A stretch of DNA of 29,964 bases, taken from the IMG/VR virus record IMGVR_UViG_2778261393_000002, one strand, 5' to 3'. This DNA is from a virus (Duplodnaviria; Heunggongvirae; Uroviricota; Caudoviricetes). Positions within the stretch are counted from its first letter, which is position 1. Every line of letters begins with the position of its first letter. The notes under the pieces were generated by a model, which was not told the DNA's origin, did no database searches, and worked only from the letters and a program-made list of their open reading frames with translations. Positions 1 to 29,420 of this stretch are shown here, one piece after another. A program made the translations under genes and the position numbers.

Positions 1-355
1 CTGCCCGGTAAATTTCTCACGAAACTGAATGCGGTTAAGGTCGGTAAGTGACAGGTTAATCATGGCGCACCTCCTGGCGAATACGGGCGGCGAATACCAT
101 CACGCAGCCAGCCGGAGATTGCTGGCGTGCTTCCTGTTCGTTGGTGGCCTCAATGGTAATCACGCGCGGCTGTGCCGTGCTCAGGGCGATAAAACGCCAG
201 ATGTATTTATTCAGGTTGTGCGAGTCCCGCCCTTGCGGGTGTGTGGTATGATTTCTCATAGCTACCTCGATACTGTTGCTATCGTTGGTGGTTAGAAGCC
301 CCGTTACTGCTCCAACAGTGCGGGGTTTCGTCGTTTCTGTGCCTTGCATCAACAA

Positions 356-439
356 GGTGTAAGACACAATGTAAAATAACGGTGTCTTACACGTCAACCC
401 TTCAAAATAATTTTTTTTCGTGTATATTGTCTTACACCA
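356..439 (+). promoter_or_regulatory. Operator-like triple motif and putative promoter upstream of small gene 459..638
   Basis: GGTGTAAGACAC at 356-367, with reverse-complement copies GTGTCTTACAC at 382-392 and TGTCTTACACC at 429-439. The third copy overlaps a TATATT -10-like hexamer at 423-428. AAGGAG SD at 447-452 precedes the ATG at 459. Confidence 0.4.
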
Positions 440-458
440 AAAACATAAGGAGTTAGAC

Positions 459-638
459 ATGGCAACAGGTCCAAAGAATGCAAAATCACAATCTGTAACT
501 GCACGTATTGCCCATGAAATTATTGAAGGCATGGAAAAAGTGAAAGAAGAAGGCGAAAGTACAGGACAGTTTATAAGCGCAGCCATGCGTGGCGAGATCA
601 AACGCCGCCAGCGCCGCCAGGCCAAAGAATCAGAATAA
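459..638 (+). CDS. Small basic protein, 59 aa, function unknown
   Basis: ATG at 459 is 7 nt downstream of AAGGAG. Translation MATGPKNAKSQSVTARIAHEIIEGMEKVKEEGESTGQFISAAMRGEIKRRQRRQAKESE has a basic C-terminal tail. Family not recognised. Confidence 0.5.
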   Translation: MATGPKNAKSQSVTARIAHEIIEGMEKVKEEGESTGQFISAAMRGEIKRRQRRQAKESE

Positions 639-647
639 AAACAACCT

Positions 648-664
648 GCGCCGTGGTGTGAGGA
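648..664. repeat. 17-bp direct repeat GCGCCGTGGTGTGAGGA, copy 1
   Basis: Exact 17-mer, 10 nt after the stop of ORF 459..638. It can pair with CCGGCGC at 668-674 to form a hairpin. Confidence 0.6.
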
Positions 665-695
665 ACTCCGGCGCATTGCTTTACAGGTACACAGA

Positions 696-890
696 ATGAC
701 CAACAAAGAATCAACCAATACACCATCACCGGCACGGAAAAGACGGCGCAGAAAGATAGAGCATGAATCAGAAAGATTCGCGCCATGTGCTTTTGCCCTT
801 GAGCAATTCCTTAAAGAGTACAGGCGCACAAAAATGGGGTCGCATACCTGGAAAACATCACGACATGGTGATGTTGAAGAGCAGAAATAA
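696..890 (+). CDS. Hypothetical small basic protein, 64 aa
   Basis: Open frame with ATG start and weak SD. Its stop is followed by the second copy of the 17-bp repeat. Coding status uncertain. Confidence 0.25.
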   Translation: MTNKESTNTPSPARKRRRRKIEHESERFAPCAFALEQFLKEYRRTKMGSHTWKTSRHGDVEEQK

Positions 891-899
891 CCACTATCA

Positions 900-916
900 G
901 CGCCGTGGTGTGAGGA
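900..916. repeat. 17-bp direct repeat GCGCCGTGGTGTGAGGA, copy 2
   Basis: Exact second copy, 252 bp from copy 1, again about 10 nt after a small-ORF stop codon (890). Confidence 0.6.
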
Positions 917-1561
917 TCCATGGCACAAAGAAGTATCCAAGAGAAAAATGATGGACGCACAGAAACTAGATATACTCACCTCCTTTCTGGAAGAACGTAA
1001 ACGAAAATGGGGGATAAAACCCCATCCTTCCACCAGAGAATTACCAAGAGCATCAACAGAGTGTTTTTTGCTTGAGGATTTCATCAAAAAGAGCAGCCCT
1101 GTTTTGTGCAGGAATAAGCGATACAAGTAATCATTACCCACTCCAGGCAACAGGGAAAAAATTCCGCTAAAGCTTTGCCCACCAGCCGCAAATGTGGCAT
1201 TGTTGGTGATGCTCATGCGTTGGGGATAACGTGTAGCTTGTGTTGAAGGGCCACCGTAGCGGGTGGCCTTTGTTTTGCCTGTTATCCGGCAATTGTGGCG
1301 CTTCGTCACACGGTTGATATAATCCCACTGCTCAGATTCATTTTTTGCGCAGTAGGTTAATTGTTCACAAAGGCGCTCCGGCAACGGGGCGCTTTTTGTT
1401 TTTACCCACCAGCACAATAAAAATCTTCATTTTCCATTTTTGTAAAATTTCATGCTTTCCGGACGGCTGACCATATATCATTTTTTAGCAGAAGATTTTG
1501 CCTTGCTGGTGGGTAGCTTCCCGGTTAACACGATGTACCGTATAATCAGCACTGCGAGTGG

Positions 1562-2140
1562 TTACTGAATACGCTCACCAAAGTAAAACTCATGCTGATA
1601 TTCACGTATCAGCCTTTTTTCTTCTTCCTCCAGCTCACGCTTTTTGCGCTTACATGCCTGTAGCTCCCTCCCCTTCTCGCTGGCACTTATCTGATATTGC
1701 TCTTTACGGCGGGAAAAATCCTGTAATGCGCCCCACGGGATACCATAAGCCCCCGTTTTTCTGATACCCGGTATCACATTTCTGAATACCCAGTTACTGA
1801 AACGATGGGCGAACGTGCCAGGCGTCGTTGCTTTGCGGCTACGGGCTATTAGTTTGTAGAAACCTGACTCGCATACAGTTCGCATTGTTTGATTTCCGCC
1901 AAGGGTGGGTATTAAACACTCCCCCTTTTCATCATCATCGAGACGGCGTAACGCAACCTTGTGATCAACAATTTCCAGCGCAGCGCACACGTCAACTGCA
2001 ACAAACCACGGATCGCCGTTCAGATACACCACGCGAACGTTCACACCATCAAAGCGCAGAACGACCAGATCACGAATATCACAGAATTTTTTTACTAGAC
2101 GAGCGTCACCTTTGCCCGTCACGGCAATATTTTTATTCAT
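1562..2140 (-). CDS. Bro-N domain protein, phage antirepressor-like
   Basis: 192-aa ORF. N-terminal region (VRVVYLNGDPWFVAVDVCAALEI ... ESGFYKLIARSRKATTPGTFAHRFSNWVFRNVIPGIRKTGAYG) has the conserved Bro-N pattern. C-terminus is a charged coiled-coil-like tail. Confidence 0.7.
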   Translation of the reverse strand: MNKNIAVTGKGDARLVKKFCDIRDLVVLRFDGVNVRVVYLNGDPWFVAVDVCAALEIVDHKVALRRLDDDEKGECLIPTLGGNQTMRTVCESGFYKLIARSRKATTPGTFAHRFSNWVFRNVIPGIRKTGAYGIPWGALQDFSRRKEQYQISASEKGRELQACKRKKRELEEEEKRLIREYQHEFYFGERIQ

Positions 2141-2158
2141 CGCTTTTTACCTCACATA

Positions 2159-2183
2159 CAAAAAACCCCGCATTGAGCGGGGC
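2159..2183 (-). terminator. Rho-independent terminator downstream of alpA
   Basis: Stem CCCCGC (2166-2171) and GCGGGG (2177-2182) with 5-nt loop, followed on the minus strand by a T-run (plus-strand AAAAAA at 2160-2165). Confidence 0.6.
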
Positions 2184-2199
2184 TGTGTTTATCTCCTGG

Positions 2200-2466
2200 T
2201 TATTGCTGTTTTGTTTTTTCCGGTTTCCATCCTGGGTGCCAATCGCCACGGATCCACGCCTGAATCTCCGAGAGACGATAGCCAGCGGCACGTTCACCAA
2301 TCTTAATACGTTTTGGGAACTTACCTGTCTTTTCCAGTTTCCAGCGTGTTGAATTTGCCAGCGTAGTAAGTGCCACGCATTCTTTTTCACGAATGACACG
2401 ATCAATATCCGGCATTGCAGTAAAATCTTTTTCATCAACAAGTGAATAAACTGACATATCAAACAA
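2200..2466 (-). CDS. alpA: AlpA-family phage transcriptional regulator, excisionase-like
   Basis: Translation contains DRVIREKECVALTTLANSTRWKLEKTGKFPKRIKIG, typical of AlpA/Vis-type winged-helix proteins. Sits immediately downstream of and overlapping the integrase stop. Exact start uncertain (M1, M4 or M18). Confidence 0.75.
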   Translation of the reverse strand: MFDMSVYSLVDEKDFTAMPDIDRVIREKECVALTTLANSTRWKLEKTGKFPKRIKIGERAAGYRLSEIQAWIRGDWHPGWKPEKTKQQ

Positions 2467-3700
2467 CCTCTTTACTCAGTTCAATAACGTTATTATTAAA
2501 TCCGGCTATCGTGTTAAGGTAATTAACCCACATATTAAGAACCTCAAGTTTTTTCTTTACATGCTTGCTTTTATTATAAACACCCGCCACACCTTTAACT
2601 TTATGACCAAGCAGAAGCTCTACAATATAAGGATCGGCACCCATATCGTTAAGCATTGTTGAAAATGTACGCCTGAAATCATGTATGCACCACAGACCAT
2701 TTACATCATGCCCTAGCCGCCTGCATATCCGGCTTGCTGCTCCTGTTATTGTCGCTCGCTTCAGTGATCTACCGATAACACAATCCCGGTGCTTTGTTTC
2801 CGCATAAAGATTAATAACCCATTGTTTTATTCCATCAGGGACTGGTCTTACAATAACCTCGCCGTTCTTGCTGTGCTCTTTTGGAACTGTCCAAATCCAG
2901 TTTTTTAAATCCCATTCTTCCCAAGTGGATAACCGCGCCTCCTGCTGACGGCAACCAAACACCAGGCAGATAACCATAATTCTTCGGTTATGTATTGATG
3001 AAAGGGTAAGTAAATTGTTGCCATAGGCATAAGACCATACGTCAGCGGCTTCATTAATACTCAGAACACGATCCCTTATGCCTGCTGAACGTCCAACATA
3101 ACTAACGTTAATATCACCGAATGGATCGCAACTAATGTATTGCCTGATACGGCAAAAACGTAACGCCTGTTTAATATCAAGAAAAATAGCACCAGACATA
3201 ACAGGAGCATTTTTTTTAATTCTGTCAAATACAGTAAGCCAGGTATGCAATTTGCACTGTTCTATAGCCATATCTCCGATATATGGAAAAATATGCTTTT
3301 CAAATCTTTTTATTAAATACTCATGCTGCTTTCTGGCTGTCCTGGCGTGATTATCGTACCAGTAAAGCACCGCATCCCTTACAGTTACAGGGCGCATGTT
3401 TTTTTCAGCTACAAGTTTTATTTGTCTGCGAGGATCCAGATTTTCCGCCAGCCATTCACGGCACTGGTCGCGTAATCTCCTGGCGGCTGCCAGAGACATA
3501 TCAGGATAACGCCCAAGGGTCAGCCATACCGGAGGGGCATCCCTGCCGCCAATACGATAGTAAAAAACGAAACTAATTCCCCCAACCACGCTTACACGAA
3601 CAGATAGCCCCCGCCCATCAGCCATGATTTTTTGTCTGTCCTGCGGCTTACCTGCAAGACTTTTCAGAAGTTTGTCAGTCAGTTTATTCTCGATAGCCAT
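2459..3700 (-). CDS. int: Tyrosine integrase, P4-like
   Basis: 413 aa from MAIENKL (start codon 3698-3700). Phage-integrase catalytic region visible (HDFRRTF ... LLGHK ... VYN). Paired with alpA as in P4-family elements. The listed ORF extends 24 codons further upstream to 3772. Confidence 0.85.
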   Translation of the reverse strand: MAIENKLTDKLLKSLAGKPQDRQKIMADGRGLSVRVSVVGGISFVFYYRIGGRDAPPVWLTLGRYPDMSLAAARRLRDQCREWLAENLDPRRQIKLVAEKNMRPVTVRDAVLYWYDNHARTARKQHEYLIKRFEKHIFPYIGDMAIEQCKLHTWLTVFDRIKKNAPVMSGAIFLDIKQALRFCRIRQYISCDPFGDINVSYVGRSAGIRDRVLSINEAADVWSYAYGNNLLTLSSIHNRRIMVICLVFGCRQQEARLSTWEEWDLKNWIWTVPKEHSKNGEVIVRPVPDGIKQWVINLYAETKHRDCVIGRSLKRATITGAASRICRRLGHDVNGLWCIHDFRRTFSTMLNDMGADPYIVELLLGHKVKGVAGVYNKSKHVKKKLEVLNMWVNYLNTIAGFNNNVIELSKEVV

Positions 3701-3718
3701 ATGTAGCCTACACGTCAA

Positions 3719-3772
3719 TTTGCAATACACACCCCATCCAAACGCCAACTTGCAATACACATTGCAATACAC
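3719..3772. repeat. Three direct copies of TTGCAATACAC upstream of the integrase start
   Basis: Copies at 3720-3730, 3750-3760 and 3762-3772. The last two are tandem with a 12-bp period. They lie about 20-70 bp upstream of the int start codon. Confidence 0.6.
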
Positions 3773-3849
3773 AAAACCGCGAAAAACACGAAAGGTAATG
3801 AACGGTCATCATAAATACAAAAAACGACATTCCAGACATATCAAGGGTT

Positions 3850-4716
3850 TTAGTGGAGTTGATGAATGGTGGCGACAACTACGGGGAGATAATAGACATA
3901 AATGGCGCGAACCACCGCCGACTGCAGTTGCGTGGCCTGCAGTGTGTCGAGCATCTTGAGACGCTCCATTACAGAATAAAACTGGTTGGCCCCGCGGGTC
4001 TGCCCGTCTTCCTGTGGCTGAAACACATGGATCATTCCCGGTCGTCCGGAAGGCAGTGTTGCCGTAATTCGTGTCCATTTACTGACACCGTAGCCGGGCC
4101 AGTCATCATCCTGAACATGGTAGGCCAGCGCTTTTCCGTGTCGGTTTATTTCCACCCCGGCACGCATAAAACGATCGCCGGTACCATAACCGGGTGTACT
4201 GACACGCTTCGGGCTGATGGTTTTGAATTTCGTCCGGAATAATGACGTGGATTCCGCATCCCATACGGGCTGGACAAAAATTTCACCGTTAAACGTATGG
4301 ACCCCCACCCCTTCACGAATGAATTCGGTAAACGAACGACGCCCTTCCACATCCATCGTACCAAACACCGGATCGCAGTATTCCATCCACGCCGCCTCAA
4401 CATCTTCAATAAAAGCATGTGAATCTGCTTCCGACATCCCCAGCCAGCGCCAGTTGGGACGGTAACTCAGACGAAACATGTGCCCGACAATATGATCCTT
4501 ATGAATTTCCACTGCATTCGATGCAATACCGTTGTTACGGACCAGCTCATCCGCGCGGGCGTTACCCAGATGAATGGAAGGTAAGAGCGCCACGTCGGCA
4601 CTTTCCGGTGCAGGCAGCCATTCTGCCATTTGCCCACCGAACCCGGAACCACCACCAGAATATCCCATGCTTTGCCGTAAAGGCTGCCCATGAATATCCA
4701 CCAGTTCCCCGTTCAC
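3850..4716 (-). pseudogene. B: Lambda-like portal protein (gpB), N-terminal fragment only
   Basis: 288-aa ORF co-linear with the lambda gpB N-terminus as I recall it (YSGGGSGFGGQ, LLP..GNARADELVRNNG, LFRTKFKTISPKRVSTP, IHVFQPQEDGQTRGANQFYSVMERLKMLDTLQATQLQSA). Similarity ends near residue 271 (about nt 3900). Lambda gpB is about 533 aa, so the C-terminal half is missing. Confidence 0.8.
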
Positions 4717-4925
4717 AGCCCCACTCCTGCCGGGCCACGACGCCGTCCGGATACACCCAGCGCACTTTCCAGCTCTTCAATATACTGACGCAGTTCACCA
4801 ATTGTCGCCCGCGAATACTGAACCTGACGCCCGTCCTTGCTGACGGAAACCACAGCACGTCCGATCATCAGTTCATGTAACGCCCGGCGGGCATCGCATA
4901 GCATTTCATGCGTATAAATCATCAC
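4713..4925 (-). CDS. W: Head-tail joining protein, lambda gpW-like
   Basis: 70 aa. ARRALHELMIGRAVVSVSKDGRQVQYSRATIGELRQYIEELE ... RRRGPAG matches the lambda gpW pattern. Position between terminase large subunit and portal as in lambda. Confidence 0.75.
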   Translation of the reverse strand: MMIYTHEMLCDARRALHELMIGRAVVSVSKDGRQVQYSRATIGELRQYIEELESALGVSGRRRGPAGVGL

Positions 4926-6845
4926 TTATCCTCCACTCAGAGCAGCCGCGATTTCTTCAATAGTCATTTCATCGTCGTCCTGTTCATCTCTTCTGGCGCG
5001 GGCCAGTGCATCCAGATCCAGTTGCCACCGCTGAACGGAAATGCGCAGCGCTGCATAGGCATACACCAGACAGTCCAGAGCTTCATTACGCCGTTTTCTG
5101 GCATCCCACTGGAGTTTCACCCGCCCGTTCACAACTTTTTCAACCAGCTCTTCTGCCACGAGTTGTTTAGCTTCAACATCAGAAAAAATGTCCGGGTTAT
5201 CCGGAAAACGGAAGGTATACGGTGCGACTTCACTGGCAGATACCACCGGCAGGGCAAAACGCGCATACAGCATTTCCTTGACGGTATCGGAACCCACCTC
5301 ACACAAAAACACCCCACGCTGGTTTCGCTTTTTTGGCATGGTGATCACCGGCTTGCCGTACACCGACGCCCCTTTGATGGGGAGCACAAAAAAAGTGCCG
5401 TGTTTTCTGGATCGCTGATACACAATGTCCTGGTCAATACCACCGGTATCCCAGCAGACGCGGGAAATGGAAATTTCAGTGCCATCTGCATGACGGTATT
5501 TTTTCCGGATCACGGCATCAACGCGTTTAAGGGTGTCCTCATCTTCCGGTCTCCCCATGATGATCTGCTTGTCAATCAGAAAAGCTTCTTCGCCAGGAGC
5601 CCAGCCCCAGACATAAATCTCATAACGGTTTTTCTGAGAGTCGATCCCTGCGGTCAGGTAAACCACCCGCAGGGGAACCTGCGCATCATAGTGGCAGACT
5701 TTTTCCAGCAATAACTCAAAGCTCAGTTTTTCTGCCACAGCCTCTTCATAAGGCTCCCCCAGCGTGGTGTTAATGAACGTCTTGACGCCATTCGGATCCT
5801 TCAGTGCATCAAGCCAGTCATAAACAATCTGTACCCAGGTGGTGAACGGGCTGTATGCCGTCCAGATGTGGTACGAGATTGAGCGCGGTGGCGGGATTTC
5901 CTCATCACCGGCGCTGTAAAATGTCAGACCGTCACGCGTCCACATCCCGGTATTGTCACAAATCCACCGCCCGTCGGTCTGGTCAAGTTCCGACTGACGG
6001 ATCGCGCAGCCATTATGTTCACACAGGTAATACACCGTCTCCGGCTTGCCCTTCTCCCATTTCAGGCCAAAGGTTGTCGCATCATCGCCAAACTTCAGAT
6101 ACTGGGCTTCACCACAATGAGGGCATGGCACATAAAACCGCATAAAATGTGCAGATTCGTTCGCGGCTTTTTCAATCTGGCAAAAACCTTTAATTTTGGG
6201 CGTTGAGCCGCGTATGGATTTAGGCCATACCGAACCTTCGATACGCTTATCGCCAAGCAGAGTTGGTGAACCTTCTTTTTCCACATCCGGTTCAAACGAG
6301 GAGAGTTCGTCATAGCAGACCACATCCACAGATTTTTCACGGTAGTTTTTGGCAGCAGCTCCGCCCAGACACCAGAATCCCACACCGGAGGAGAAACGTT
6401 TCAGGGTAAGCGTGTTGTCCCGATGTTTTCTGCCAAACCACGGAGCCAGCTCCAGTAATACAGGAACGTCTCTTATCGTTGGTTCGACATGGGATTTCAT
6501 AAAATCTTCTGCCGCAGAATCTGTCGGCTGAAAAAGCAGGCTGTTACGGGATTTGTGTTCAATAAAATAAGCCTCCACCCCCAACAGCATTTTGGTGTAA
6601 CCAACACGCGCCGATTTAATCAGATTAACGGTGCGGATCCGGTCATTCCCCATGCTGTTCATGATGGCAACCTGAAACGGCAGTGTTTCCCATTGCCCGG
6701 GAGTATATGAAGACTCTTTTGGCAGATAATAATGCTGATCAGCCCACTGAACTGTCGTCAGTGGTACCGGAATATTGAGAGATACAAGCCCTGTTGCTAT
6801 CGCACCGGCTGCATTAGCTGCCTTCTGTGCGTCTGAAATCATCAA
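4926..6845 (-). CDS. A: Terminase large subunit, lambda gpA-like
   Basis: 639 aa, co-linear with lambda gpA along the whole length ([94 protein letters not shown]). Confidence 0.95.
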
Positions 6846-7362
6846 TCCACCCGCCTACGTTCTCACCAGCTTTAGCTGCAACGTTGGAGGCTTTTGCGAT
6901 TTCAGTTTTCACCACATCAAGGTGTGACGGTGAAATATCCGGATATTTACGCTGTAATGTCAGCGGCACACGTACAAGTATCCCCGAAATCTCCTGTGCC
7001 ACACGTTGCAGAATGAAGGTAAACAATTCCGTTTCCAGTACCAGCCCTTCTTCGCGGGCATTTTTCAGTTCCTGTGCATCAGCCTGTGCTTTTGTGAGTC
7101 GGTAGCGCTCATAGTCAATGGTGCCGGGTTGTAAATCTGATTCCGCAGCCGCACGCAAATCCTCGGTCTCTTTGCGGAGTTTTTCGTTTTCAATATCGGC
7201 TTCGCGCTGCGCATACCACTGAATTGCCATGGCGGTATCAAATACAGATTCAACCCCCTTACTACCACCAGAGACACAAGAGAGCCCCTGAGACTGCCAG
7301 CGTTCAATCGTTCGTGGATCCACGTTGAAAATTTCCGCGAGCTTCTTTTTATTAACCTTCAT
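6814..7362 (-). CDS. nu1: Terminase small subunit, lambda Nu1-like
   Basis: Start taken at [12 protein letters not shown] (codon 7360-7362), matching the lambda Nu1 N-terminus MEVNKKQLADIF. Conserved stretch [27 protein letters not shown]. The 3' end overlaps the terminase large-subunit start. Confidence 0.9.
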
Positions 7363-7387
7363 AAAACATTTCCATATCAAATGCAGG

Positions 7388-7440
7388 GTCCGACATGGAA
7401 GTGCTCAAAAACGTCTTTTTCGGGCACTTTCATGTCGGAC
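7388..7440. repeat. 53-bp palindrome between cos and the Nu1 start
   Basis: Perfect 10-bp arms GTCCGACATG (7388-7397) and CATGTCGGAC (7431-7440) with partly self-complementary interior. Lies in the cosB-equivalent region. Confidence 0.6.
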
Positions 7441-7500
7441 CTTTTACGGATGTGATTGATGAAAAAACAATGAGTTATACACGAGAAGTACCGACACGCT

Positions 7501-7560
7501 TTTTCCCGAAAAATTTTCATAAATAGCGAAAATCCGCGCCGCTGCCGCCCCGTGGCAGAC
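7501..7560 (-). other. Cohesive end site (cosN/cosB-like)
   Basis: Minus-strand sequence GGGGCGGCAGCGGCGCGGATTTTCGCTATTTATGAAAATTTTTCGGG closely matches the lambda left end GGGCGGCGACCTCGCGGGTTTTCGCTATTTATGAAAATTTTCCGG as recalled. cosN analogue at about 7539-7550, upstream of Nu1. Confidence 0.75.
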
Positions 7561-7905
7561 CACCCCACCGGAAGGACCCGTACAAATAGAGTTATTATTA
7601 ATTACATTTACAGTAGGAATGATGTACATCATTGAAACACCATTCAGTCATATACCGACAGCATTCGGTGTTGCACTTCATAACTCTGCGACTACGGTTA
7701 TAAAAGCATTGGCTACTTTTGCCACCGGCAAATCTTCAATGGATTTCCCCTGCCGGTTTTTTATTTTCATCGATGCATAACATTGCTTTTACATCAATAG
7801 CAGCTATTGTCAGTAGTATGTTGTATCGATGCATGGGTGGTATTGGCGATCTTCGCCGACCGGTTCTGTGTAGCTCCCTATGACCGGTTTTTTTATTTCT
7901 AAGAT

Positions 7906-7940: not shown

Positions 7941-8045
7941 ACGCTTCTTACTTTGTAATTTTCGCACCTTCCGGTAATTCCATAGGTTAAAAAAACCTCA
8001 TAATCTCTGACAATTTGATCCTACCCACGTAATATGGACACAGGC

Positions 8046-8912
8046 CTAAGCGAGGTTCTGGTTTTCAAATTGTTCCGGACTGAGGCCGCCACACCAACTG
8101 TGCCGCCGCCACCGATTGTAATCACATTCGATATAATTAAACACCGTTGCCCGCATTATTTCCCGGCTGATAAAGTGTTCTCCATGGATACATTCCACTT
8201 TCAGCGAATGAAAGAAGCTTTCCACGCAGGCATTATCGTAGCAGCAACCTTTTGCGCTCATACTTCCACGCAGATTATGCCGCTTCAGTTGCGCCTGATA
8301 ATCTGCTGAACAGTACTGGCCTCCACGGTCCGTGTGAACGATAACGTTCCAGGGCCTCTTACGCCGCCACAGCGCCATCTGCAGGGCATCGCAGGCCAGT
8401 TGCGCCGTCATGCGTGGCGACATTGACCAGCCAATAACGGCACGTGACCACAGGTCAATGACCACTGCCAGATACAGCCAGCCTTCATCTGTACGTAAGT
8501 ACGTGATGTCTCCTGCCCACTTCTGGTTCGGGCCACTGGCGTAAAAATCCTGCTCCAACAGATTTTCTGACACAGGCAGGCCGTGTGCGCGGTAGCTGAC
8601 CGGGCTGAACTTCCGGGAGGCCTTTGCCCTCAGTCCCTGACGGCGCAGGCTTGCCGCCACGGTTTTTTCGTTAAAGGGGTAACCCTGAGCACGCAGTTCA
8701 TCCGTCAGGCGTGGGGCACCGTAACGCTGTTTTGACCGGGTAAAAGCCGCGAGGACAACGCTGTCGCAGTGTTGGCGGAACTGCTGACGCGTGCTTATCC
8801 TTGTCCGCCGCTGACACCACGTATACCAGCCGCTGCGGGCCACCCGGAGCACGCGGCACATTGCTTTGATGCTGAACTCAGCCTGATGTTTTTCAATAAA
8901 GACATACTTCAT
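8046..8912 (-). CDS. insF: IS3 transposase OrfB
   Basis: 288 aa with DDE transposase/integrase core (WAGDITYL ... HTDRGGQY ... [11 protein letters not shown]). Matches IS3 InsF as remembered. Confidence 0.95.
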
Positions 8913-9217
8913 TTCAGGCGCTTCGCGAAGTATGTCGCGGCCTTTTGGAGGATAGCCAGCTCTTCATCCCGTTCTGCCAGCTGGCGTTTGAGACGTGCAA
9001 TCTCGGTAGACATCTCCAGTTCACGTTCAGAAGACGTCTGCTGATTTTGCTGTTTACTGCGCCAGTTGTAGAGCTGTGATTCATACAGGCTGAGTTCACG
9101 GGCTGCGGCAGTAACACCGATGCGTTCAGCAAGCTTCAGGGCTTCACTGCGAAATTCAGGCGAATGCTGTTTACGGGGTTTTTTACTGGTTGATACTGTT
9201 TTTGTCATGTGAGTCAC
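8909..9217 (-). CDS. insE: IS3 transposase OrfA (HTH)
   Basis: 102 aa ending in a leucine-zipper-like segment. Its stop overlaps the orfB ATG in the -1 frame, as expected for IS3-family programmed frameshifting. Confidence 0.95.
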
Positions 9218-9370
9218 CTCTGACTGAGAGTTTACTCACTTAGCCGCGTGTCCACTATTGCTGGGTAAGATCAATTATCATCCACACAGGATAAAGACAT
9301 CTGACCAGATTGCAGTATTAAAAGCTCTCATGCAGACTACGCACCCCATATCATATACAAGGTTATACTG

Positions 9371-12003: not shown

Positions 12004-12747
12004 TTATTCTTGAGTAACACTTAAACTCATCTCATTGAATGCAGCCATCCTGTAACCTGCCGGTGTAACACCAAAATAACTCCTGAATACGCTGATAAAA
12101 TAAGATGTAAAATTATAGCCACACTGAGCAGCGATTCTGTTGATGGCGCAACGAGATTGATTCAACAGCATTGCTGCCATTCTCATTCTCTCTGTAAGCA
12201 ACAACTCACTGAAACAGGTGCCTTCTTCTTTCAGTCTTTTTTTTAACAAACTTTCACTGATACATAACCGCGAAGACACATCTCTCAGAGTCCAGTTTGC
12301 TGCAATGTCCGTACGAAACAATGCACTAAGCCTGTCACTAATATTGCCAATACACGCGGTCAGAAACGACGAAAACATTTTCTCTGATGAGAAAAACGCC
12401 AGACACGAAAAGGAAAGCATTTCCGCTAAATTGTCCGTATGAATCTTTTCCTCACAAAGATAATCAATCAGGATGCCCATCAATTCTGCCTTGGGAAAAC
12501 TCACGCAAAGATATCGTGGTATTTGCCGGACTAAAACTACATCCTGTTTTTCGTCTCCACACAACAGGTAACGGATAATTGTCGATTCACTGAGACTTAT
12601 TCGCCGAAAACATTCCGAAAAGGGCAATAACGATCCAGCTCCCCCCCTGACAAGAAGTGCACTACCACTTTCCAGAGAGAGCTCTTTTCCTTCAAAGAGC
12701 ACAACAAACGGGGAATGAACAAAAACAACAGAACAAGCTTCATTCAT
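12004..12747 (-). CDS. AraC-family transcriptional regulator, AppY/GadX-like
   Basis: C-terminal AraC HTH signature (SESLLKKRLKEEGTCFSELLLTERMRMAAMLLNQSRCAINRIAAQCGYNFTSYFISVFRSYFGVTPAGY). N-terminal CSVVF motif shared with DLP12 AppY as recalled. Start taken at MNEACSVVF. Confidence 0.8.
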   Translation of the reverse strand: MNEACSVVFVHSPFVVLFEGKELSLESGSALLVRGGAGSLLPFSECFRRISLSESTIIRYLLCGDEKQDVVLVRQIPRYLCVSFPKAELMGILIDYLCEEKIHTDNLAEMLSFSCLAFFSSEKMFSSFLTACIGNISDRLSALFRTDIAANWTLRDVSSRLCISESLLKKRLKEEGTCFSELLLTERMRMAAMLLNQSRCAINRIAAQCGYNFTSYFISVFRSYFGVTPAGYRMAAFNEMSLSVTQE

Positions 12748-12969
12748 ATCAATTGCCCTGACATTACTGGTCACAAGATAAGTATATATCGATTTACAAA
12801 AATACAAGCCGAAAGACCAGTATTCGCAACCACCAGCGCGTTTAACGTCCTGTACCGTTTTTCAGGCATAAAAAACCCGCTCAGTGGCGGGTTTAAGCTG
12901 TTTGGCGTAGTAACCACTCTTAACAGGATATTCAACTTTTTACGATCGTAAAGCGTTCGGGGAAAATTT

Positions 12970-13458
12970 TTAAAACCGTTCCAGAGTGCATACCATCGCA
13001 TCGGCGGGTAGTTTTTCCGTGAAGTCGACCTGACCGTGTTTATCGAAGTGGATCAGTAATGCGCATCCATCATTTTGGGTTGGGGTGTTTTGTGCTGCTG
13101 GTGGTTGTTTTTGGCTGAAATAACAGTCTTCCAGTTTTTCGAACACTTCCCACGCCTGATCGGTTTCCAGCATTTTGGCGTGACGGGCTGCTCCGCGTTC
13201 TGTCCAGAGGATGAGGTGCTTTGTACGCGGTGCAACTAAGTTACTTTGAGTAACCTTGTTCTTAAATTCCCGCAACTCAGCCCCTTCCAATTTGAAGTAG
13301 TGTTTCCCACAAACAAAACGCTCGGCATTGCGTGTATAGTTCACTTTGATGTTATTAGTTTCGGTGCCATAAAGTTGTGCCAAAAGCTCGGTAGTAATGA
13401 CAGGGATTTGGTTATGGGTGATCGGGGAAAGAGTTTCAACTGAGATTTGAATAGCCAT
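12970..13458 (-). CDS. ORF6N-domain DNA-binding protein, antirepressor-like
   Basis: 162 aa. N-terminus (ITTELLAQLYGTETNNIKVNYTRNAERFVCGKHYFKLEGAELREFK) fits the ORF6N/KilA-N-like pattern. SD AAGGA upstream. Confidence 0.6.
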   Translation of the reverse strand: MAIQISVETLSPITHNQIPVITTELLAQLYGTETNNIKVNYTRNAERFVCGKHYFKLEGAELREFKNKVTQSNLVAPRTKHLILWTERGAARHAKMLETDQAWEVFEKLEDCYFSQKQPPAAQNTPTQNDGCALLIHFDKHGQVDFTEKLPADAMVCTLERF

Positions 13459-17445: not shown

Positions 17446-18699
17446 TTACATTTTATCAATTTCAGAAATGATCCTATCAATTTCATCAATGCTTGCTTGA
17501 ATTGTTAGATTATTTTTTATTATCTCAAGTAATTCTATTGCTCTTCTTTTGGGCCTTGATGACACCAGTTCTGAATTTGCTCTTTCATTCTCCACGAACA
17601 ACCGTGAGAGAGCCATCAATTGATTACTATTTAACACATCTAAAAATGGTTGAAGTACTAAATGTGCATCAGATCTTCCCCAGTAATTCCCCACCCAAAC
17701 AGTAAGTATTTCTTGATATACATCTTCAAATGCAATAGATGGAACATGAGGTCCAAATTGTATAAGTGCCTTGGCTGCTCTTTCTTCATCATTCCAGCCG
17801 TAAGATGTATCCTTAGCTTTAGCTAGCTGTTTAACCGCATGTCTGTATAAACTTGCCCTAGCAGCATCAGGTATAAATTTCACACCATTAACTTTTACTA
17901 AAGTCTCTAAAATTCTTATTTTTGCTCCTTTATCCTCACTTGTATCCGATTCGGGCTCCAGCATAAATGAGTGATATCTTTCCCCCGCTGTTTTTTTAAG
18001 GTCATCATTAGATCTTTCCCATGCTTGTTCAAACAACTTGCTAGCATTAACATAAGCAGGATTTTCCCCCTTAGTTATTAAATCCAATAAAAATCCAAAT
18101 GTTATTCTTATATCAGCTTGCTTAAATGCTCTTATTTGATCTTTAAGTAAGTCTATGCTCTCAATTGATAGTTCAGATTTTTTTATGGGTTCAAATAATC
18201 CAGATGGCGAATGTCCAGGGTCTGGCATATCAGATTCGAATAAATTCTTCTGGAGCATAAGAGCCAAAGCAAACACATCCTCAGACTCTACTTTACTATC
18301 ACTTGCATGGGCTGGAGAGGCATGGTTTCTCATCCAATTGATCATTTCTAATGATTTTCCAGCTTTCTTATGCAGAACCCCTAATTTGGTGGCTCCACTT
18401 ATTAGCACTAAATCATCTACACCTGACCATCTCTCGTTTATTGTTTCACCATCTTTATCATATTTTTTACGACCACTATCATCCTTTATTGCGGAAAGGA
18501 ATAAGTCTAAACCATAAGCCTCAATTCGCCGCCTAAGATTATGAATGGATGCATTCCATATATCTAAAAGAGCATGATCAGGGAAGCCAGAATCTAACAA
18601 CTTTCTAGCTTGCGAAAGGAATTCTATTTCAGTATTAACTGTTGCAGGAAAATTAGTTGTTGATGGCGAGCTTAATAAAACCGGGAGATTTTTTGACAT
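17446..18699 (-). CDS. Hypothetical protein, 417 aa (cargo gene B, candidate defence effector)
   Basis: Long uninterrupted ORF in an AT-rich segment with SD AAGGAAA upstream. No family recognised. Contains an R-x6-H motif (MRNHASPAH) of the kind seen in HEPN RNases. Confidence 0.8.
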   Translation of the reverse strand: MSKNLPVLLSSPSTTNFPATVNTEIEFLSQARKLLDSGFPDHALLDIWNASIHNLRRRIEAYGLDLFLSAIKDDSGRKKYDKDGETINERWSGVDDLVLISGATKLGVLHKKAGKSLEMINWMRNHASPAHASDSKVESEDVFALALMLQKNLFESDMPDPGHSPSGLFEPIKKSELSIESIDLLKDQIRAFKQADIRITFGFLLDLITKGENPAYVNASKLFEQAWERSNDDLKKTAGERYHSFMLEPESDTSEDKGAKIRILETLVKVNGVKFIPDAARASLYRHAVKQLAKAKDTSYGWNDEERAAKALIQFGPHVPSIAFEDVYQEILTVWVGNYWGRSDAHLVLQPFLDVLNSNQLMALSRLFVENERANSELVSSRPKRRAIELLEIIKNNLTIQASIDEIDRIISEIDKM

Positions 18700-19312
18700 T
18701 GAATTTCCTTTAAGTAAAAATTATAATCTATGTCTTTGTGAACAAATTTACACGATATTGTAACCTTGCAGGTGCAAGAAGTAGTGTTCAAATAAATACG
18801 TGAAGAGAAAAAATCCGCCATGACAAAGCTATACACTATTCCCAATTCTTAAAAAATTCAATATGTTTAAAAAATTAATTTTCAAAACTAGCATCCTAAT
18901 ACTCTAAACACACCTATATACAACTAAGGATATGAACAGTATCCTTTTATAGAAGGAGTCTGATCCCTACAGATTTAGAGATTTTAATGTTTGTTAACTT
19001 CCGCCTATGACACAGAGGTGCTGTTGCAGCCCTAAAAACCTTATGTTTTGTTCAAGTCAGAGCTATACGACGCATCGTCGAATTCAATGCCCAAGCAACG
19101 GATTGTGCTTGCCAGTTTCTTATGGTTCAACAGAGGTTCAATGATTAGTATGCTGTAAAGCAAATCTTCGAGACAAAACTTCTCTACCCCCCATGAAAAA
19201 TTTCGGTTGAATTGCCTGGGTGATGTGTGCCGGATAGCTCCAACTCGAGACTGAAGCATGAAGTCTTTACTATGAAAATTAGCAGACTGTATACGCAGCC
19301 TGCTAGTTTATG

Positions 19313-20434
19313 TTAGAGCTTATAAAGTTCAATTAATCTGGATTTTTCTCTGTCAAATTCTTCATCAAGATTTGAGAAGTCTGGAAGTGTAACCATTAAA
19401 TCCTTAAGTTGATGAATAACATTCCAGACATCGTAATGAATAAAGGGATTTAAGCCAATTACATTCCCCTCATCATTATTTTTAGATTTCCCTACACCAC
19501 ACAATTTGATGAATTTGTTGATTGCAGTTGTTTCATTCCAGTCCGAGACAAAAAGAAGCAAGGCAGATACAGCCAAAAGGGGGTTATTTTTTTTAACAGC
19601 GGATATACCCCTGATTTTCCTAAAAAGAAATTCGTGATGCCTGGTTATTTTTTGTGCAACTCTTATCGTTGCTTCATATTTTTCTTTAAGCAACCTTCTA
19701 TCATAAACCTGATAACCTCGATCTCGTGCTACTAATCGATGTGCTTGTTTAGTAAATGTGGTACTATTCACAAGATTATAGAAAACAGAATTATTTTCAT
19801 TAGTCATGTCGATCATCAATGATGGATATTTGAATCTTAACGAACGATACACTTCATCGTTTATATCAAACCAGGATTTATTTTTCCTCTCTTCATCTAC
19901 AATATATTTACTTTCTCCCTTACGGGAATACATGCTGGCCCTTATTAGATTGATCATGTGAGGGCTATAGTTAACAGAAAAAGTGCCTGACTGGCGTAAT
20001 TCTGTAAACCATTGCCGCATGTTTCGAATATCTTCCTGATTGAACTCATCATGTTCAATACCTCTACATACAAGCTCGCGAATTATACTTGTAATCTCAG
20101 AACCTGAGGTGCCGAATTTTATAAAACCATCCCTTGATGAATCTATTTGCTTATCATTACCACTGTAATGATCGCAAAATACTTTGTGTGCATCAGTTCC
20201 GTCTTTTGTTCTAAACGAAAAATGAGATTGGCTGACTATCTTATTTGTTCTTTTCGAATAACCTTCTGAAACAACAATCGCACCGCTTACATTGCAAATT
20301 GGGCACTCTGCATCAAAGGCAACAAATTCCTTGAAATCACTGAAATTGAGTGCGTTATCTGATGAGTAATGGTTTAACAATTGAACCATGTCCAATTCCT
20401 TTTTGAATGTACGAGAATAGACCGTAATTGCCAT
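19313..20434 (-). CDS. Hypothetical protein, 373 aa (cargo gene A)
   Basis: Start taken at MAITVYS (codon 20432-20434) with SD AAGGGAG 7 nt upstream. No family recognised. N-terminal Cys/His cluster (ECPICNVSG ... HKVFCDHY). Confidence 0.8.
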   Translation of the reverse strand: MAITVYSRTFKKELDMVQLLNHYSSDNALNFSDFKEFVAFDAECPICNVSGAIVVSEGYSKRTNKIVSQSHFSFRTKDGTDAHKVFCDHYSGNDKQIDSSRDGFIKFGTSGSEITSIIRELVCRGIEHDEFNQEDIRNMRQWFTELRQSGTFSVNYSPHMINLIRASMYSRKGESKYIVDEERKNKSWFDINDEVYRSLRFKYPSLMIDMTNENNSVFYNLVNSTTFTKQAHRLVARDRGYQVYDRRLLKEKYEATIRVAQKITRHHEFLFRKIRGISAVKKNNPLLAVSALLLFVSDWNETTAINKFIKLCGVGKSKNNDEGNVIGLNPFIHYDVWNVIHQLKDLMVTLPDFSNLDEEFDREKSRLIELYKL

Positions 20435-20635
20435 TTGAACTCCCTTCATCATAATTTTGGTTGTATGAAATATTATCGCATAAAGATACTAATGAGCCAG
20501 TAATATAACTAGAAACGACTTTTTGTGGTTCAGCGAACTAGACGTCCGCTCCTGGCACAAAGCGGACAACCACGCTAGCTCTACCCTGTGCCACAAAATG
20601 TCAATTTGCATCTGAACTAATGCACTTTAATCTCG

Positions 20636-28063: not shown

Positions 28064-28333
28064 ATGAGCGAACAGTACCTGATAACGCTCGATGAGTGGA
28101 AACCCAAACGGTTCAGTCTCCCAATAACAAACACTACCCTGGTGAAATACGGAAAACTTGGATACATCGTACCAAGACCACAAAAAATTCGTGGACGTTG
28201 GCTGATAGATCGCCGGGCAGTATTTGTTGGACCTGGTGAAACGGGAATTGCGCCGGAAATTCATACTGGCGATGATGATGCACTGAAGGAGATTTTAACT
28301 CATGTCACCGAGGCCACGAAAAAACAGCACTGA
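28064..28333 (+). CDS. xis: Excisionase
   Basis: 89 aa from MSEQYLITLDEWKPKRF (ATG 28064, SD GGAG 8 nt upstream). Overlaps the int start, typical xis-int arrangement. Confidence 0.7.
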   Translation: MSEQYLITLDEWKPKRFSLPITNTTLVKYGKLGYIVPRPQKIRGRWLIDRRAVFVGPGETGIAPEIHTGDDDALKEILTHVTEATKKQH

Positions 28334-29420
28334 CGTAGCCGGTCTTTACGAAAAGTTTGATCGCAGAACTGGCAGAGTTTACTACCAGTATAAAAACCCT
28401 GTGACTGGAAAATTTCACGGACTCGGAACAGACAAAGGCAAAGCTGAAAGAATCGCTTCCACAGCCAATCAGCGAATAGCTGCAGCAGAAGCCGAATATT
28501 TCATGCGCAAAATTGATGAAAGTCCATCAGCAACAAAACGTCGGGGTATCAGATTAAAGGCATGGGTTGATCGATATCTGAAAATACAGGACACGCGACT
28601 GAAAAATGGAGATATTGCAGCTACAACTCACAAAGAAAAAACTCGAATGGCTGCATACCTGGTTTCCCGTCTGGGAAACCACCCATTGAAAGAACTGGAA
28701 GTAAGAGACTTTGCATTAATACTGGATGAGTGGCTGGATAAAGACATGGTCAGCACAGCGAGAGTAAATCGTGGATTATGGGTTGATATTTATAAAGAAG
28801 CACAGCATGCAGGGGAAGTTCCTCCTGGATGGAATCCTCCGGAGGCTACCCGTAAACCGATCCCTAAAGTAACCAGAGCCAGACTCACCCTGGAAGACTG
28901 GCAAAAAATTTACAACGCAACGCCTGAAAAACACTTTATCCGTAACGCAATGCTTCTTGCGATTGTTACTGGTCAGCGCCGTGATGACATTTGCCATATG
29001 CGTTTTTCAGATGTGTGGAACGAACACCTGCATATTACCCAGGGAAAAACTGGAATGCGTCTGGCGTTACCGCTGACGCTACGCTGTGATGCCATTGGGA
29101 TATCGCTAAAAGAAGTGATTGATGGATGCAGGGACAGAATATTGAGTCCATACCTGATTCATAGTCGGCACCAAAAACAACCAAAACCAATGAGTAAAGA
29201 CAACCTGAGCGATTACTTTGCCAAAGCGCGGGAGCTGGCTGGAATAATTCCACCAGCAGGAAAAACTCCGCCAACATTTCATGAACAACGTTCTCTATCA
29301 GAACGGCTGTACCGTGCACAGGGTATCGATACAAAAACATTACTGGGACATAAAGTCCAGGCAACCACCGATCGTTATAACGATACTCGTGGTCAGGAAT
29401 GGGTTAAATTGGTTGTTTGA
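28302..29420 (+). CDS. int: Lambda-type tyrosine integrase
   Basis: 372 aa, co-linear with lambda Int as recalled (LAIVTGQRRDDICHMRFSDV, EQRSLSERLY, LLGHK, RYNDTRGQEW). Confidence 0.9.
   Translation: MSPRPRKNSTDVAGLYEKFDRRTGRVYYQYKNPVTGKFHGLGTDKGKAERIASTANQRIAAAEAEYFMRKIDESPSATKRRGIRLKAWVDRYLKIQDTRLKNGDIAATTHKEKTRMAAYLVSRLGNHPLKELEVRDFALILDEWLDKDMVSTARVNRGLWVDIYKEAQHAGEVPPGWNPPEATRKPIPKVTRARLTLEDWQKIYNATPEKHFIRNAMLLAIVTGQRRDDICHMRFSDVWNEHLHITQGKTGMRLALPLTLRCDAIGISLKEVIDGCRDRILSPYLIHSRHQKQPKPMSKDNLSDYFAKARELAGIIPPAGKTPPTFHEQRSLSERLYRAQGIDTKTLLGHKVQATTDRYNDTRGQEWVKLVV

Follow-up and report, generated by a model that had tools for sequence, protein, structure and literature searches.

A complete phage-21-type cos site in an Escherichia coli prophage whose portal gene is very probably interrupted by a helper-embedded satellite

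Among lambda-like phages, natural variation in cosN is common at base pairs 7–12 (Feiss et al. 2015, PMC4669245), with the N15 site differing at positions 9 and 12 and that of Gifsy-1 at positions 8, 9 and 11 (PMC4669245). The mutation C11G produces no phenotype, the symmetric change G2C lowers yield ~10-fold, and the CG dinucleotides flanking the nicks are conserved, as is cosQ (PMC4669245). The lambda and N15 terminases are without cosN specificity, and neither the lambda-specific nor the 21-specific terminase packages DNA of the other phage (PMC4669245).

Two described satellite systems bear on the locus presented here. Some Gram-negative PICIs of the cos type encode Rpp, EcCICFT073 being an example (Fillol-Salom 2019); in the scheme reviewed by Murialdo and Feiss (PMC9026076), Rpp pairs with the small terminase (TerS) of the helper as a heterodimer, keeps it off the phage cosB and guides terminase to the cos of the island. 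Helper-embedded PICIs (HE-PICIs) sit within a late gene of the helper itself, and the site B:Phage_portal_2:241, with the identity block 'aaggcgat', is entered in the supplementary table of Tommasini, Mageeney and Williams (2023, PMC10111431). The capsid-gene island 11capE is the one case in which excision on helper induction, with restoration of the late gene, has been demonstrated by experiment (PMC10111431); a truncated appearance is noted for many HE-PICI helpers, and particles were not recovered from the model composite (Tommasini et al., PMC10111431).

The window analysed here is the whole 29,964-nucleotide stretch of IMG/VR virus record IMGVR_UViG_2778261393_000002. We consider that it very probably carries the complete cos of a phage-21-like E. 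coli prophage whose portal gene is interrupted by an HE-PICI at B:Phage_portal_2:241, with the window ending inside the island. The cos is of the lambda family and complete (cosQ, cosN, I2 and a cosB with R3, I1, R2 and R1), occupies 7364–7579 on the minus strand and has intact terminase genes directly downstream, confirming the position at which an earlier note, made from the sequence alone, had recognised a lambda-like cos; cosQ itself falls beyond the end coordinate given there, 7560. Subsites were placed by aligning the window to the annotated phage 21 head-operon record M81255 and transferring its features; all of the phage 21 subsites map, with 13–16 of 15–16 bases identical:

7573–7579, minus strand: cosQ heptamer GGGTCCT, the packaging-termination signal, overlapping the R4/cosQ feature of M81255
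7539–7550, minus strand: cosN cohesive-end 12-mer GGGCGGCAGCGG, a 12-nt 5' overhang if nicked in the lambda fashion
7507–7521, minus strand: I2, TATGAAAATTTTTCG, between cosN and cosB, 14/15 against phage 21 I2
7486–7501, minus strand: R3, the cosB TerS (gp1) binding box nearest cosN, 15/16 against phage 21 R3
7465–7479, minus strand: I1, the IHF site, 13/15 against phage 21 I1
7428–7443, minus strand: R2, an inverted cosB TerS box and left arm of the palindrome, 16/16 against phage 21 R2
7387–7441, no strand: palindrome of 55 bp, comprising R2, a spacer and R1
7385–7400, minus strand: R1, a cosB TerS box and right arm of the palindrome, 13/16 against phage 21 R1
7364–7378, minus strand: I0, transferred from M81255

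The start codon of TerS (ATG) follows at 7362. All subsites follow one another in the order, orientation and spacing found in phage 21 (M81255, OL657228), with an R2/R1 palindrome in both, and BLASTN of window positions 6800–7640 against a phage collection returned the phage 21 cos and gene 1 as its best match (87.4% over 754 nt, E = 0). The cosB is of the complex kind, with three TerS boxes, R2 inverted relative to R3 and R1, and the IHF site between R3 and R2. Since the linear phage 21 genome record starts at the base aligned to window position 7550, the left cohesive end is fixed there; CG dinucleotides flank the 12-mer at 7551–7552 and 7537–7538 and are identical in lambda and phage 21. 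In a four-way alignment of the window, phage 21, lambda and a PICI cos, CGGGTCCTT..CC was invariant at cosQ, as were the blocks CG-GGGCGGC (the hyphen marking the nick), CGC and, within I2, CTATTTATG. The distance from cosQ to the top-strand nick is 22 nt, as in phages mEp460 and PhiR40_1, compared with 23 nt in lambda and phage 21. Further departures from phage 21 are the cohesive end (GGGCGGCAGCGG here, GGGCGGCGACCT there), a cosQ–cosN segment of another type and 1 nt shorter, and the nuclease half of the large terminase (TerL), which is only ~72% identical.

With lambda the locus shares the cosQ heptamer, the left half of cosN, the flanking CGs, I2 and the R3-I1-R2-R1 plan with its R2/R1 hairpin, whereas its R-box sequences and TerS specificity are 21-type. 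The strong conservation relative to lambda that the earlier note had described is therefore true of cosQ, the left half of cosN and I2, but not of the cosB boxes and TerS, which are of the phage 21 type. Aligned to lambda, as proposed in that note, the site keeps the family plan, but cosN differs at 4 of 12 positions and DNA identity over 6800–7640 is ~64%.

The exact pattern GGGCGGNNNNNNCGCGG occurs once in the window, and a search within the window for a second cos found none. In the INPHARED phage collection no virion genome pairs a GGGCGGCAGCGG cosN with a 21-type cosB, the best match being phage 21 at 87%. Among complete E. coli genomes, 22 of 5,426 carry at least 80% of the window cos region, the strains listed coming mostly from cattle or farm sources. 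A scan of GTDB species representatives for CCACGGGGCGGCAGCGGCGCGG gave four matches only, in an Arthrobacter and in MAGs of Myxococcales, Spirochaetota and Gemmatimonadota, which we took as chance, the organisms being unrelated.

A repeat search resolved the palindrome into inverted arms at 7387–7411 and 7417–7441, each of 25 nt and 88% complementary. Folded as single-stranded DNA, it reaches −19.8 kcal/mol (z = −7.1), a value that 0 of 200 shuffles equal. The palindrome, reported previously as 53 bp at 7388–7440, is thus real, but it is not the extra structural feature for which it was taken: it is canonical cosB architecture, formed by the inverted TerS boxes R2 and R1, and because the homologous segments of phage 21 (−19.3 kcal/mol, z = −7.2) and lambda (−18.5 kcal/mol, z = −5.3) form hairpins of similar energy at the homologous position, nothing has been added. 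That a separate functional element, such as a terminator or regulatory hairpin, was inserted into cosB is hardly credible. The strength of the predicted hairpin and the extension of its arms a few bases beyond the annotated R boxes would suit such an element, but the R2/R1 hairpins of phage 21 and lambda are equally strong, on the phage coding strand the stem is not followed by a T-run, and the only terminator-like match nearby (7400–7370) is a different, weak stem of 12 pairs, from a promoter and terminator scan around cos whose hits were no commoner than in shuffles.

The genes that would act on this site are the first of the late operon:

6814–7362, minus strand: TerS, homologue of phage 21 gene 1 and lambda Nu1, 182 aa, intact (Pfam Phage_Nu1, E = 2.6e-83)
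4926–6842, minus strand: TerL, homologue of phage 21 gene 2 and lambda A, 638 aa, intact (Pfam GpA_ATPase and GpA_nuclease complete)

TerS is 94% identical to phage 21 gp1 with 182/182 aa aligned, and across residues ~1–26, the N-terminal DNA-binding region, a single difference separates the two (K7 here, R in phage 21). It matches PDB chains 6HN7_B (E = 1.4e-37), the TerS chain of an RppC–TerS complex, and 1J9I. TerL aligns end to end with phage 21 gp2 over 636 aa at 82% identity, ~92% in the N-terminal half and ~72% in the C-terminal nuclease half. The stretches LTAGIDSQ and RRNEALDC are identical in that alignment; we take them to surround the nuclease-centre residues of lambda gpA. Both subunits are full length against phage 21 with complete Pfam domains, bearing out the earlier claim that they are intact, and the possible frameshift it had allowed for appears in neither.

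Judged by sequence, the window cos is phage-21-type and not lambda-type. R boxes with 13–16 of 16 bases in common with those of phage 21 are paired here with a 21-type N-terminal winged helix-turn-helix of TerS, and the packaging specificity predicted from the two together is that of phage 21. Because terminase of one of these two specificities does not package DNA of the other (PMC4669245), a helper phage of the lambda type would be of no use, and lambda terminase is not expected to initiate packaging at this cos.

The cohesive end departs from the GGGCGGCGACCT of lambda and phage 21 at positions 8, 9, 11 and 12, with positions 1–7 identical. One reading of these four substitutions, two of which (11 and 12) lie beside the bottom-strand nick, is that they abolish nicking and that the site is a fossil; a change at a third of the cohesive-end positions, and the scarcity of the allele among lambda/21-like cos sites in IMG/VR (2 of the first 120 sampled), point that way. 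We consider this most improbable. All of the changes fall in bp 7–12, where mutations including C11G are without measurable effect (PMC4669245), and the left half of cosN, both flanking CGs and cosQ are intact. The exact 20-mer core ACGGGGCGGCAGCGGCGCGG is kept base for base in 69 IMG/VR contigs and also in Salmonella phage Fels-1, with which the cohesive end and its immediate flanks (CCACG-GGGCGGCAGCGG-CGCGG) are identical. To the right of it the 69 contigs differ, with at least four unrelated types of cosB flank and small-terminase gene: one 21-type, one Fels-1-type and two more. Among 103 sites whose cosB is 21-type the allele is in the minority, being present at 17. Two sister alleles, GGGCGGGAGCGT and GGGCGGGAGCGG, are carried by phages cdtI, Tritos, PhiR40_1 and mEp460, and the database entries for cdtI and Tritos start exactly at the cohesive-end base. 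The cosQ–cosN segment, GGTGGGGTGG(C/T)CTGCCACG, with its 22-nt spacing, is that of mEp460 and PhiR40_1, although the cosB regions and small terminases of these two phages, and of Fels-1, cdtI and Tritos, are unrelated to those of the window. The cos of E. coli N61 matches at 100% over 278 nt and belongs to a prophage with an intact portal gene and full head and tail sets. We therefore argue from the tolerance of these positions (PMC4669245), the recurrence of the allele amid unrelated flanks and its presence in the intact N61 prophage that this cosN, a naturally occurring allele, is probably a working one rather than a product of decay. The earlier note had named mutations at the nicking positions as something that would refute its reading; the four changes found are all in the tolerant half, between intact CGs.

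Downstream of TerL, the portal gene breaks off and satellite DNA begins:

3902–4668, minus strand: portal gene B, N-terminal 256 codons, matching positions 2–242 of 354 of the Pfam Phage_portal_2 profile
1–3901, minus strand: right end of the helper-embedded PICI, running off the window (Pfam Arm-DNA-bind_3, Phage_integrase, Phage_AlpA and Bro-N)
2459–3700, minus strand: P4-type tyrosine integrase of the island, co-oriented with the late operon
2200–2457, minus strand: AlpA of the island (Pfam Phage_AlpA)
1562–2140, minus strand: Bro-N protein of the island (Pfam Bro-N)
56–1084, minus strand: 342-aa island ORF, no assigned function

The portal ORF is indeed truncated, as first reported, its Phage_portal_2 match stopping at 242 of 354. 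The attR core GCGCCAT (phage strand; window 3902–3908) ends the portal fragment, 99.9% identity to the intact N61 portal gene ceases at window position 3897, and the chimeric ORF reads on into island DNA as far as a stop codon whose last base is 3850. Its product passes at the junction from QSAVVRA to IYVYYLPVV and then terminates; the intact portal protein reads VVRAMYAATIE. A 288-aa version of this junction protein, with a GTG start, is on record exactly in 268 blocks of an assembly collection, in which the 272-aa version of the portal fragment, from the annotated ATG, is not on record. GCGCCAT matches the Arg-Ala-Met codons of the helper, so the att core of the island here matches its target sequence.

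In this arrangement the island resembles the HE-PICI at B:Phage_portal_2:241, a comparison that covers its first 3.9 kb, within the window. Integrase and AlpA lie at the island end, co-oriented, as is the Bro-N zone, with the interrupted late gene; insertion is at profile position ~241 (the fragment matching to 242), at the KAMYAA/RAMYAA codons; and the island brings no replacement portal sequence. The portal gene of E. coli EC28, although only ~70% identical to that of the window, is split at the same codon by a 10.9-kb island. That island encodes an integrase, a helix-turn-helix regulator (at the position of AlpA in relatives), Bro-N, an Icd-like protein, DUF4222, a primase, an SSB, a major capsid protein, a decoration protein and a small terminase, and is flanked by the repeat ...ATCGCCTT. 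The att identity block differs between the two, GCGCCAT here compared with AAGGCGAT at the published site and in EC28.

The closest relative found, L207 (CP057584.1), aligns gap-free with the window as far as position 1 (99.73% over 12,140 nt), and its island of ~11 kb indicates what may lie beyond. Past the point at which the window ends it encodes DUF4222, an AAA_25 protein and an SSB, followed by a capsid-E homologue, a decoration protein and ORFs of 141, 146 and 61 aa. Its attL reads TTCATAA-GCGCCAT-GTATGCC, after which come the C-terminal half of the portal gene (AMYAATIES...; AMYAATIESTLD) and the S49 protease gpC. Of the elements expected to flank the island, attR lies in the window, and attL and the C-terminal half of the portal gene are seen in L207 and EC28. 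Across relatives L200–L211 a replication zone (DUF4222, the AAA_25-domain protein and SSB) and a late zone (capsid E, decoration protein and Rpp) recur, no primase domain being detected in the replication zone; none of the complete RefSeq E. coli genomes in the collection holds the whole composite. The published att site, the insertion at the same codon as in EC28 and the resumption of the portal gene past the L207 island together identify the truncation, on comparative grounds, as a site-specific integration junction (attR) and not a deletion. The description of the locus as a prophage lacking morphogenesis genes is consequently not supported, as the break is such a junction and the window ends inside the island.

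The L207 island has a cos of its own, outside the window: cosQ GGGTCCT, a spacing of 22 nt, a cosN of CG-GGGCGGCAGACG-CG, and then GCTATTTATGA. The right half of this cosN (GGGCGGCAGACG) differs from that of the helper at two positions. The 146-aa ORF that follows matches RppC (PDB 6HLK; E = 4.8e-34), so that the L207 island, like cos-type Gram-negative PICIs with Rpp such as EcCICFT073 (PMC9026076), has cosQ and cosN and then an RppC homologue. By the same comparison, the Nu1 homologue of the window (6814–7362) would be the helper TerS captured by Rpp; unlike EcCICFT073, the island sits in the portal gene of its helper and not at a chromosomal site.

Since the L207 island carries its own cos next to an RppC homologue, the roles assigned in the earlier note, in which the prophage might be packaged in trans by a helper phage, are probably inverted: the likelier role for the prophage is that of helper, not of a relic dependent on one, and the embedded island would be what is packaged in trans. 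On the lambda and phage 21 paradigm, TerS dimers would bind R3, R2 and R1 and IHF would bend the DNA at I1, thereby positioning TerL on cosN to make nicks 12 bp apart and leave 5' overhangs of GGGCGGCAGCGG. By analogy with the published system and with the 99.7%-identical relative, late transcription would read into the island, and excision of the island would restore the portal gene. By analogy also, its RppC-like protein would capture helper TerS and redirect terminase from the prophage cos to that of the island. Sequence alone establishes the layout of the locus, the integrity of both terminase genes, the junction in the portal gene and the repeated occurrence of the cosN allele elsewhere. 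That the site is nicked, that the island excises, that DNA is packaged and that this genome has head and tail genes we infer, and it is by extrapolation from relatives that the prophage may be complete.

A different account would have an orphan cos and terminase in a decayed prophage whose head and tail genes were truly lost and which would be mobile only through a 21-specific helper acting in trans. Within the window no head or tail gene was found except gpW, an IS3 has inserted in the late operon, and the truncated appearance of many HE-PICI helpers (PMC10111431) is in keeping with loss. We nonetheless judge decay improbable. What interrupts the portal gene is a site-specific junction at an att site already published, rather than a deletion; L207, at 99.73% identity, resumes the C-terminal half of the portal gene and gpC past its island; N61 has the identical cos and the IS3 together with a full morphogenesis set; and the early region is still there in the window, its genes including those for a cI-like repressor, Cro and Q, lysis functions and a lambda-type integrase. 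Against our own reading there also stand the 22-nt cosQ–cosN spacing and the lack of an INPHARED virion genome with both this cosN allele and a 21-type cosB. Little in the preferred reading, of an interrupted helper prophage, is new, as the cos architecture is textbook and the missing morphogenesis genes are explained by a type of satellite published in 2023. It offers a caution, that a truncated portal gene beside an integrase in a late operon is better taken for an HE-PICI junction than for prophage decay, and a natural example in which the cos and TerS of a helper can be studied jointly with a satellite cos and its Rpp redirector.

Where cosB is 21-type, the right half of cosN is linked to the type of segment that lies upstream of cosN. 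Canonical sites read GGGTCCTTTCCGG(C/T)GATCC...GTTACG, with 23 nt from cosQ to the nick, and variant sites GGGTCCTTCCGGTGGGGTGG(C/T)CTGCCACG, with 22 nt, a form that matches mEp460 and PhiR40_1. The diverged TerL nuclease half (at least 99.7% identical to the window, ~72% to phage 21) accompanies 12/12 variant loci and 0/43 canonical loci, the latter being those that cover the TerL gene, all with a 21-type nuclease half. It is doubtful that this reflects co-adapted nicking and termination, and with it a second cosN/cosQ specificity class within the phage 21 packaging group, although, if true, TerL co-adaptation could affect how the satellite cosN GGGCGGCAGACG competes for the same terminase. 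We rejected the co-segregation as proof of co-adaptation: 11 of the variant loci are 98–100% identical to the window and amount to one lineage, and the same cosN allele stands beside small-terminase genes unrelated to Nu1, with the large terminase of cdtI, the sole one compared from a phage with a related allele, only 25% identical to the window TerL. Locus L285 and genome L211 pair a window-type TerL with GGGCGGGAGCGT, which again points to tolerance in the right half.

The rest of the window is apparently a coherent lambdoid prophage, with its late operon on the minus strand and three further features that could be placed:

4713–4922, minus strand: gpW head-completion/head-tail joining gene (Pfam gpW, E = 4e-25), so annotated in E. 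coli N61
8017–9273, minus strand: IS3 element within the late operon, outside cos and 437 bp upstream of cosQ, with transposase Pfam domains
28302–29420: lambda-type integrase

The remaining genes comprise DUF1398, Bor, an endolysin, two holins, an AraC-family regulator, an ORF6N protein, Q, RusA, DUF968, Cro, a cI-like S24 repressor and a RecE-like exonuclease. The IS3, whose position in the late operon could reduce late expression, begins TGATCCTACCCACG... and ends ...GCTGGGTAAGATCA; these ends were located by reading the sequence, the repeat search not having found the IS3 terminal inverted repeats. An 'IS3-like element IS3 family transposase' is annotated at the same place in N61.

The terminase large subunit (TerL) encoded in the window departs unevenly from that of phage 21, its ATPase half being about 92% identical, in contrast to about 72% for the nuclease half. 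Among loci with a 21-type cosB, this nuclease allele and the variant cosQ-to-cosN segment co-segregated perfectly (12/12 versus 0/43), with the variant loci forming a single lineage. Two loci, L211 (about position 4591) and L285, have cosB, TerS and TerL as in the window and the cohesive end GGGCGGGAGCGT. They thus share the window TerL but carry a different end, linking one terminase lineage to two cosN right halves. Resemblance of L211 to the window starts at window position 7591, a mosaic boundary just upstream of cosQ. The features considered here are as follows.

Features of the window and of compared loci
1-3908: right end of the PICI satellite embedded in the helper, encoding integrase, AlpA, Bro-N and a 342-aa ORF
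3902-3908: att identity block, compared with L207 (CP057584.1) 19050-19075 and with L005 11520-11535 and 22425-22445
4926-5880: C-terminal (nuclease) half of TerL
8017-9273, oriented as the late genes: IS3 element of the late operon, between the Bor/DUF1398 genes and cos
12004-13458: AraC-family regulator (267-aa ORF) and ORF6N-domain protein, between the Q antiterminator and holin genes
17446-18699 and 19313-20452, minus strand: two large early-region ORFs (417 and 379 aa)
L207 17945-18514, outside the window, about 5.8-6.4 kb past window position 1: the satellite's own cos and an RppC homologue

In Fels-1-type cos sites (Fels-1 itself, L133, L129 and others), the cosN 12-mer is identical to that of the window, and AGGTACT stands in place of the cosQ heptamer GGGTCCT, 22 nt ahead of cosN. 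AGGTACT represents natural cosQ variation; among lambda-like phages, such variation was described as 'not apparent' (Feiss et al. 2015, PMC4669245).

The satellite cos in L207 is ordered as cosQ GGGTCCT, 22 nt, cosN GGGCGGCAGACG and then the RppC homologue, which matched PDB 6HLK (E = 4.8e-34). Satellite and helper cohesive ends differ at positions 10 and 11. The PICI interrupts portal gene B between the codons of ...VVRA|MYAA, the published site B:Phage_portal_2:241, and the resulting 288-aa chimeric portal/island junction ORF occurs in 268 blocks of public assemblies. The att identity block varies by helper, reading GCGCCAT in the window versus AAGGCGAT in EC28, an E. coli with an island at the same portal codon. 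This difference follows the target portal codons (Arg-Ala versus Lys-Ala), so that the att core of each island matches the portal sequence of its own helper.

The IS3 element is common to E. coli N61, EC11 and others, indicating an old insertion within the lineage. The AraC-family regulator and ORF6N-domain protein look like cargo ('moron') genes of the late operon leader. No Pfam match was found for the 417- and 379-aa early-region ORFs, and in N61 other genes occupy their place.
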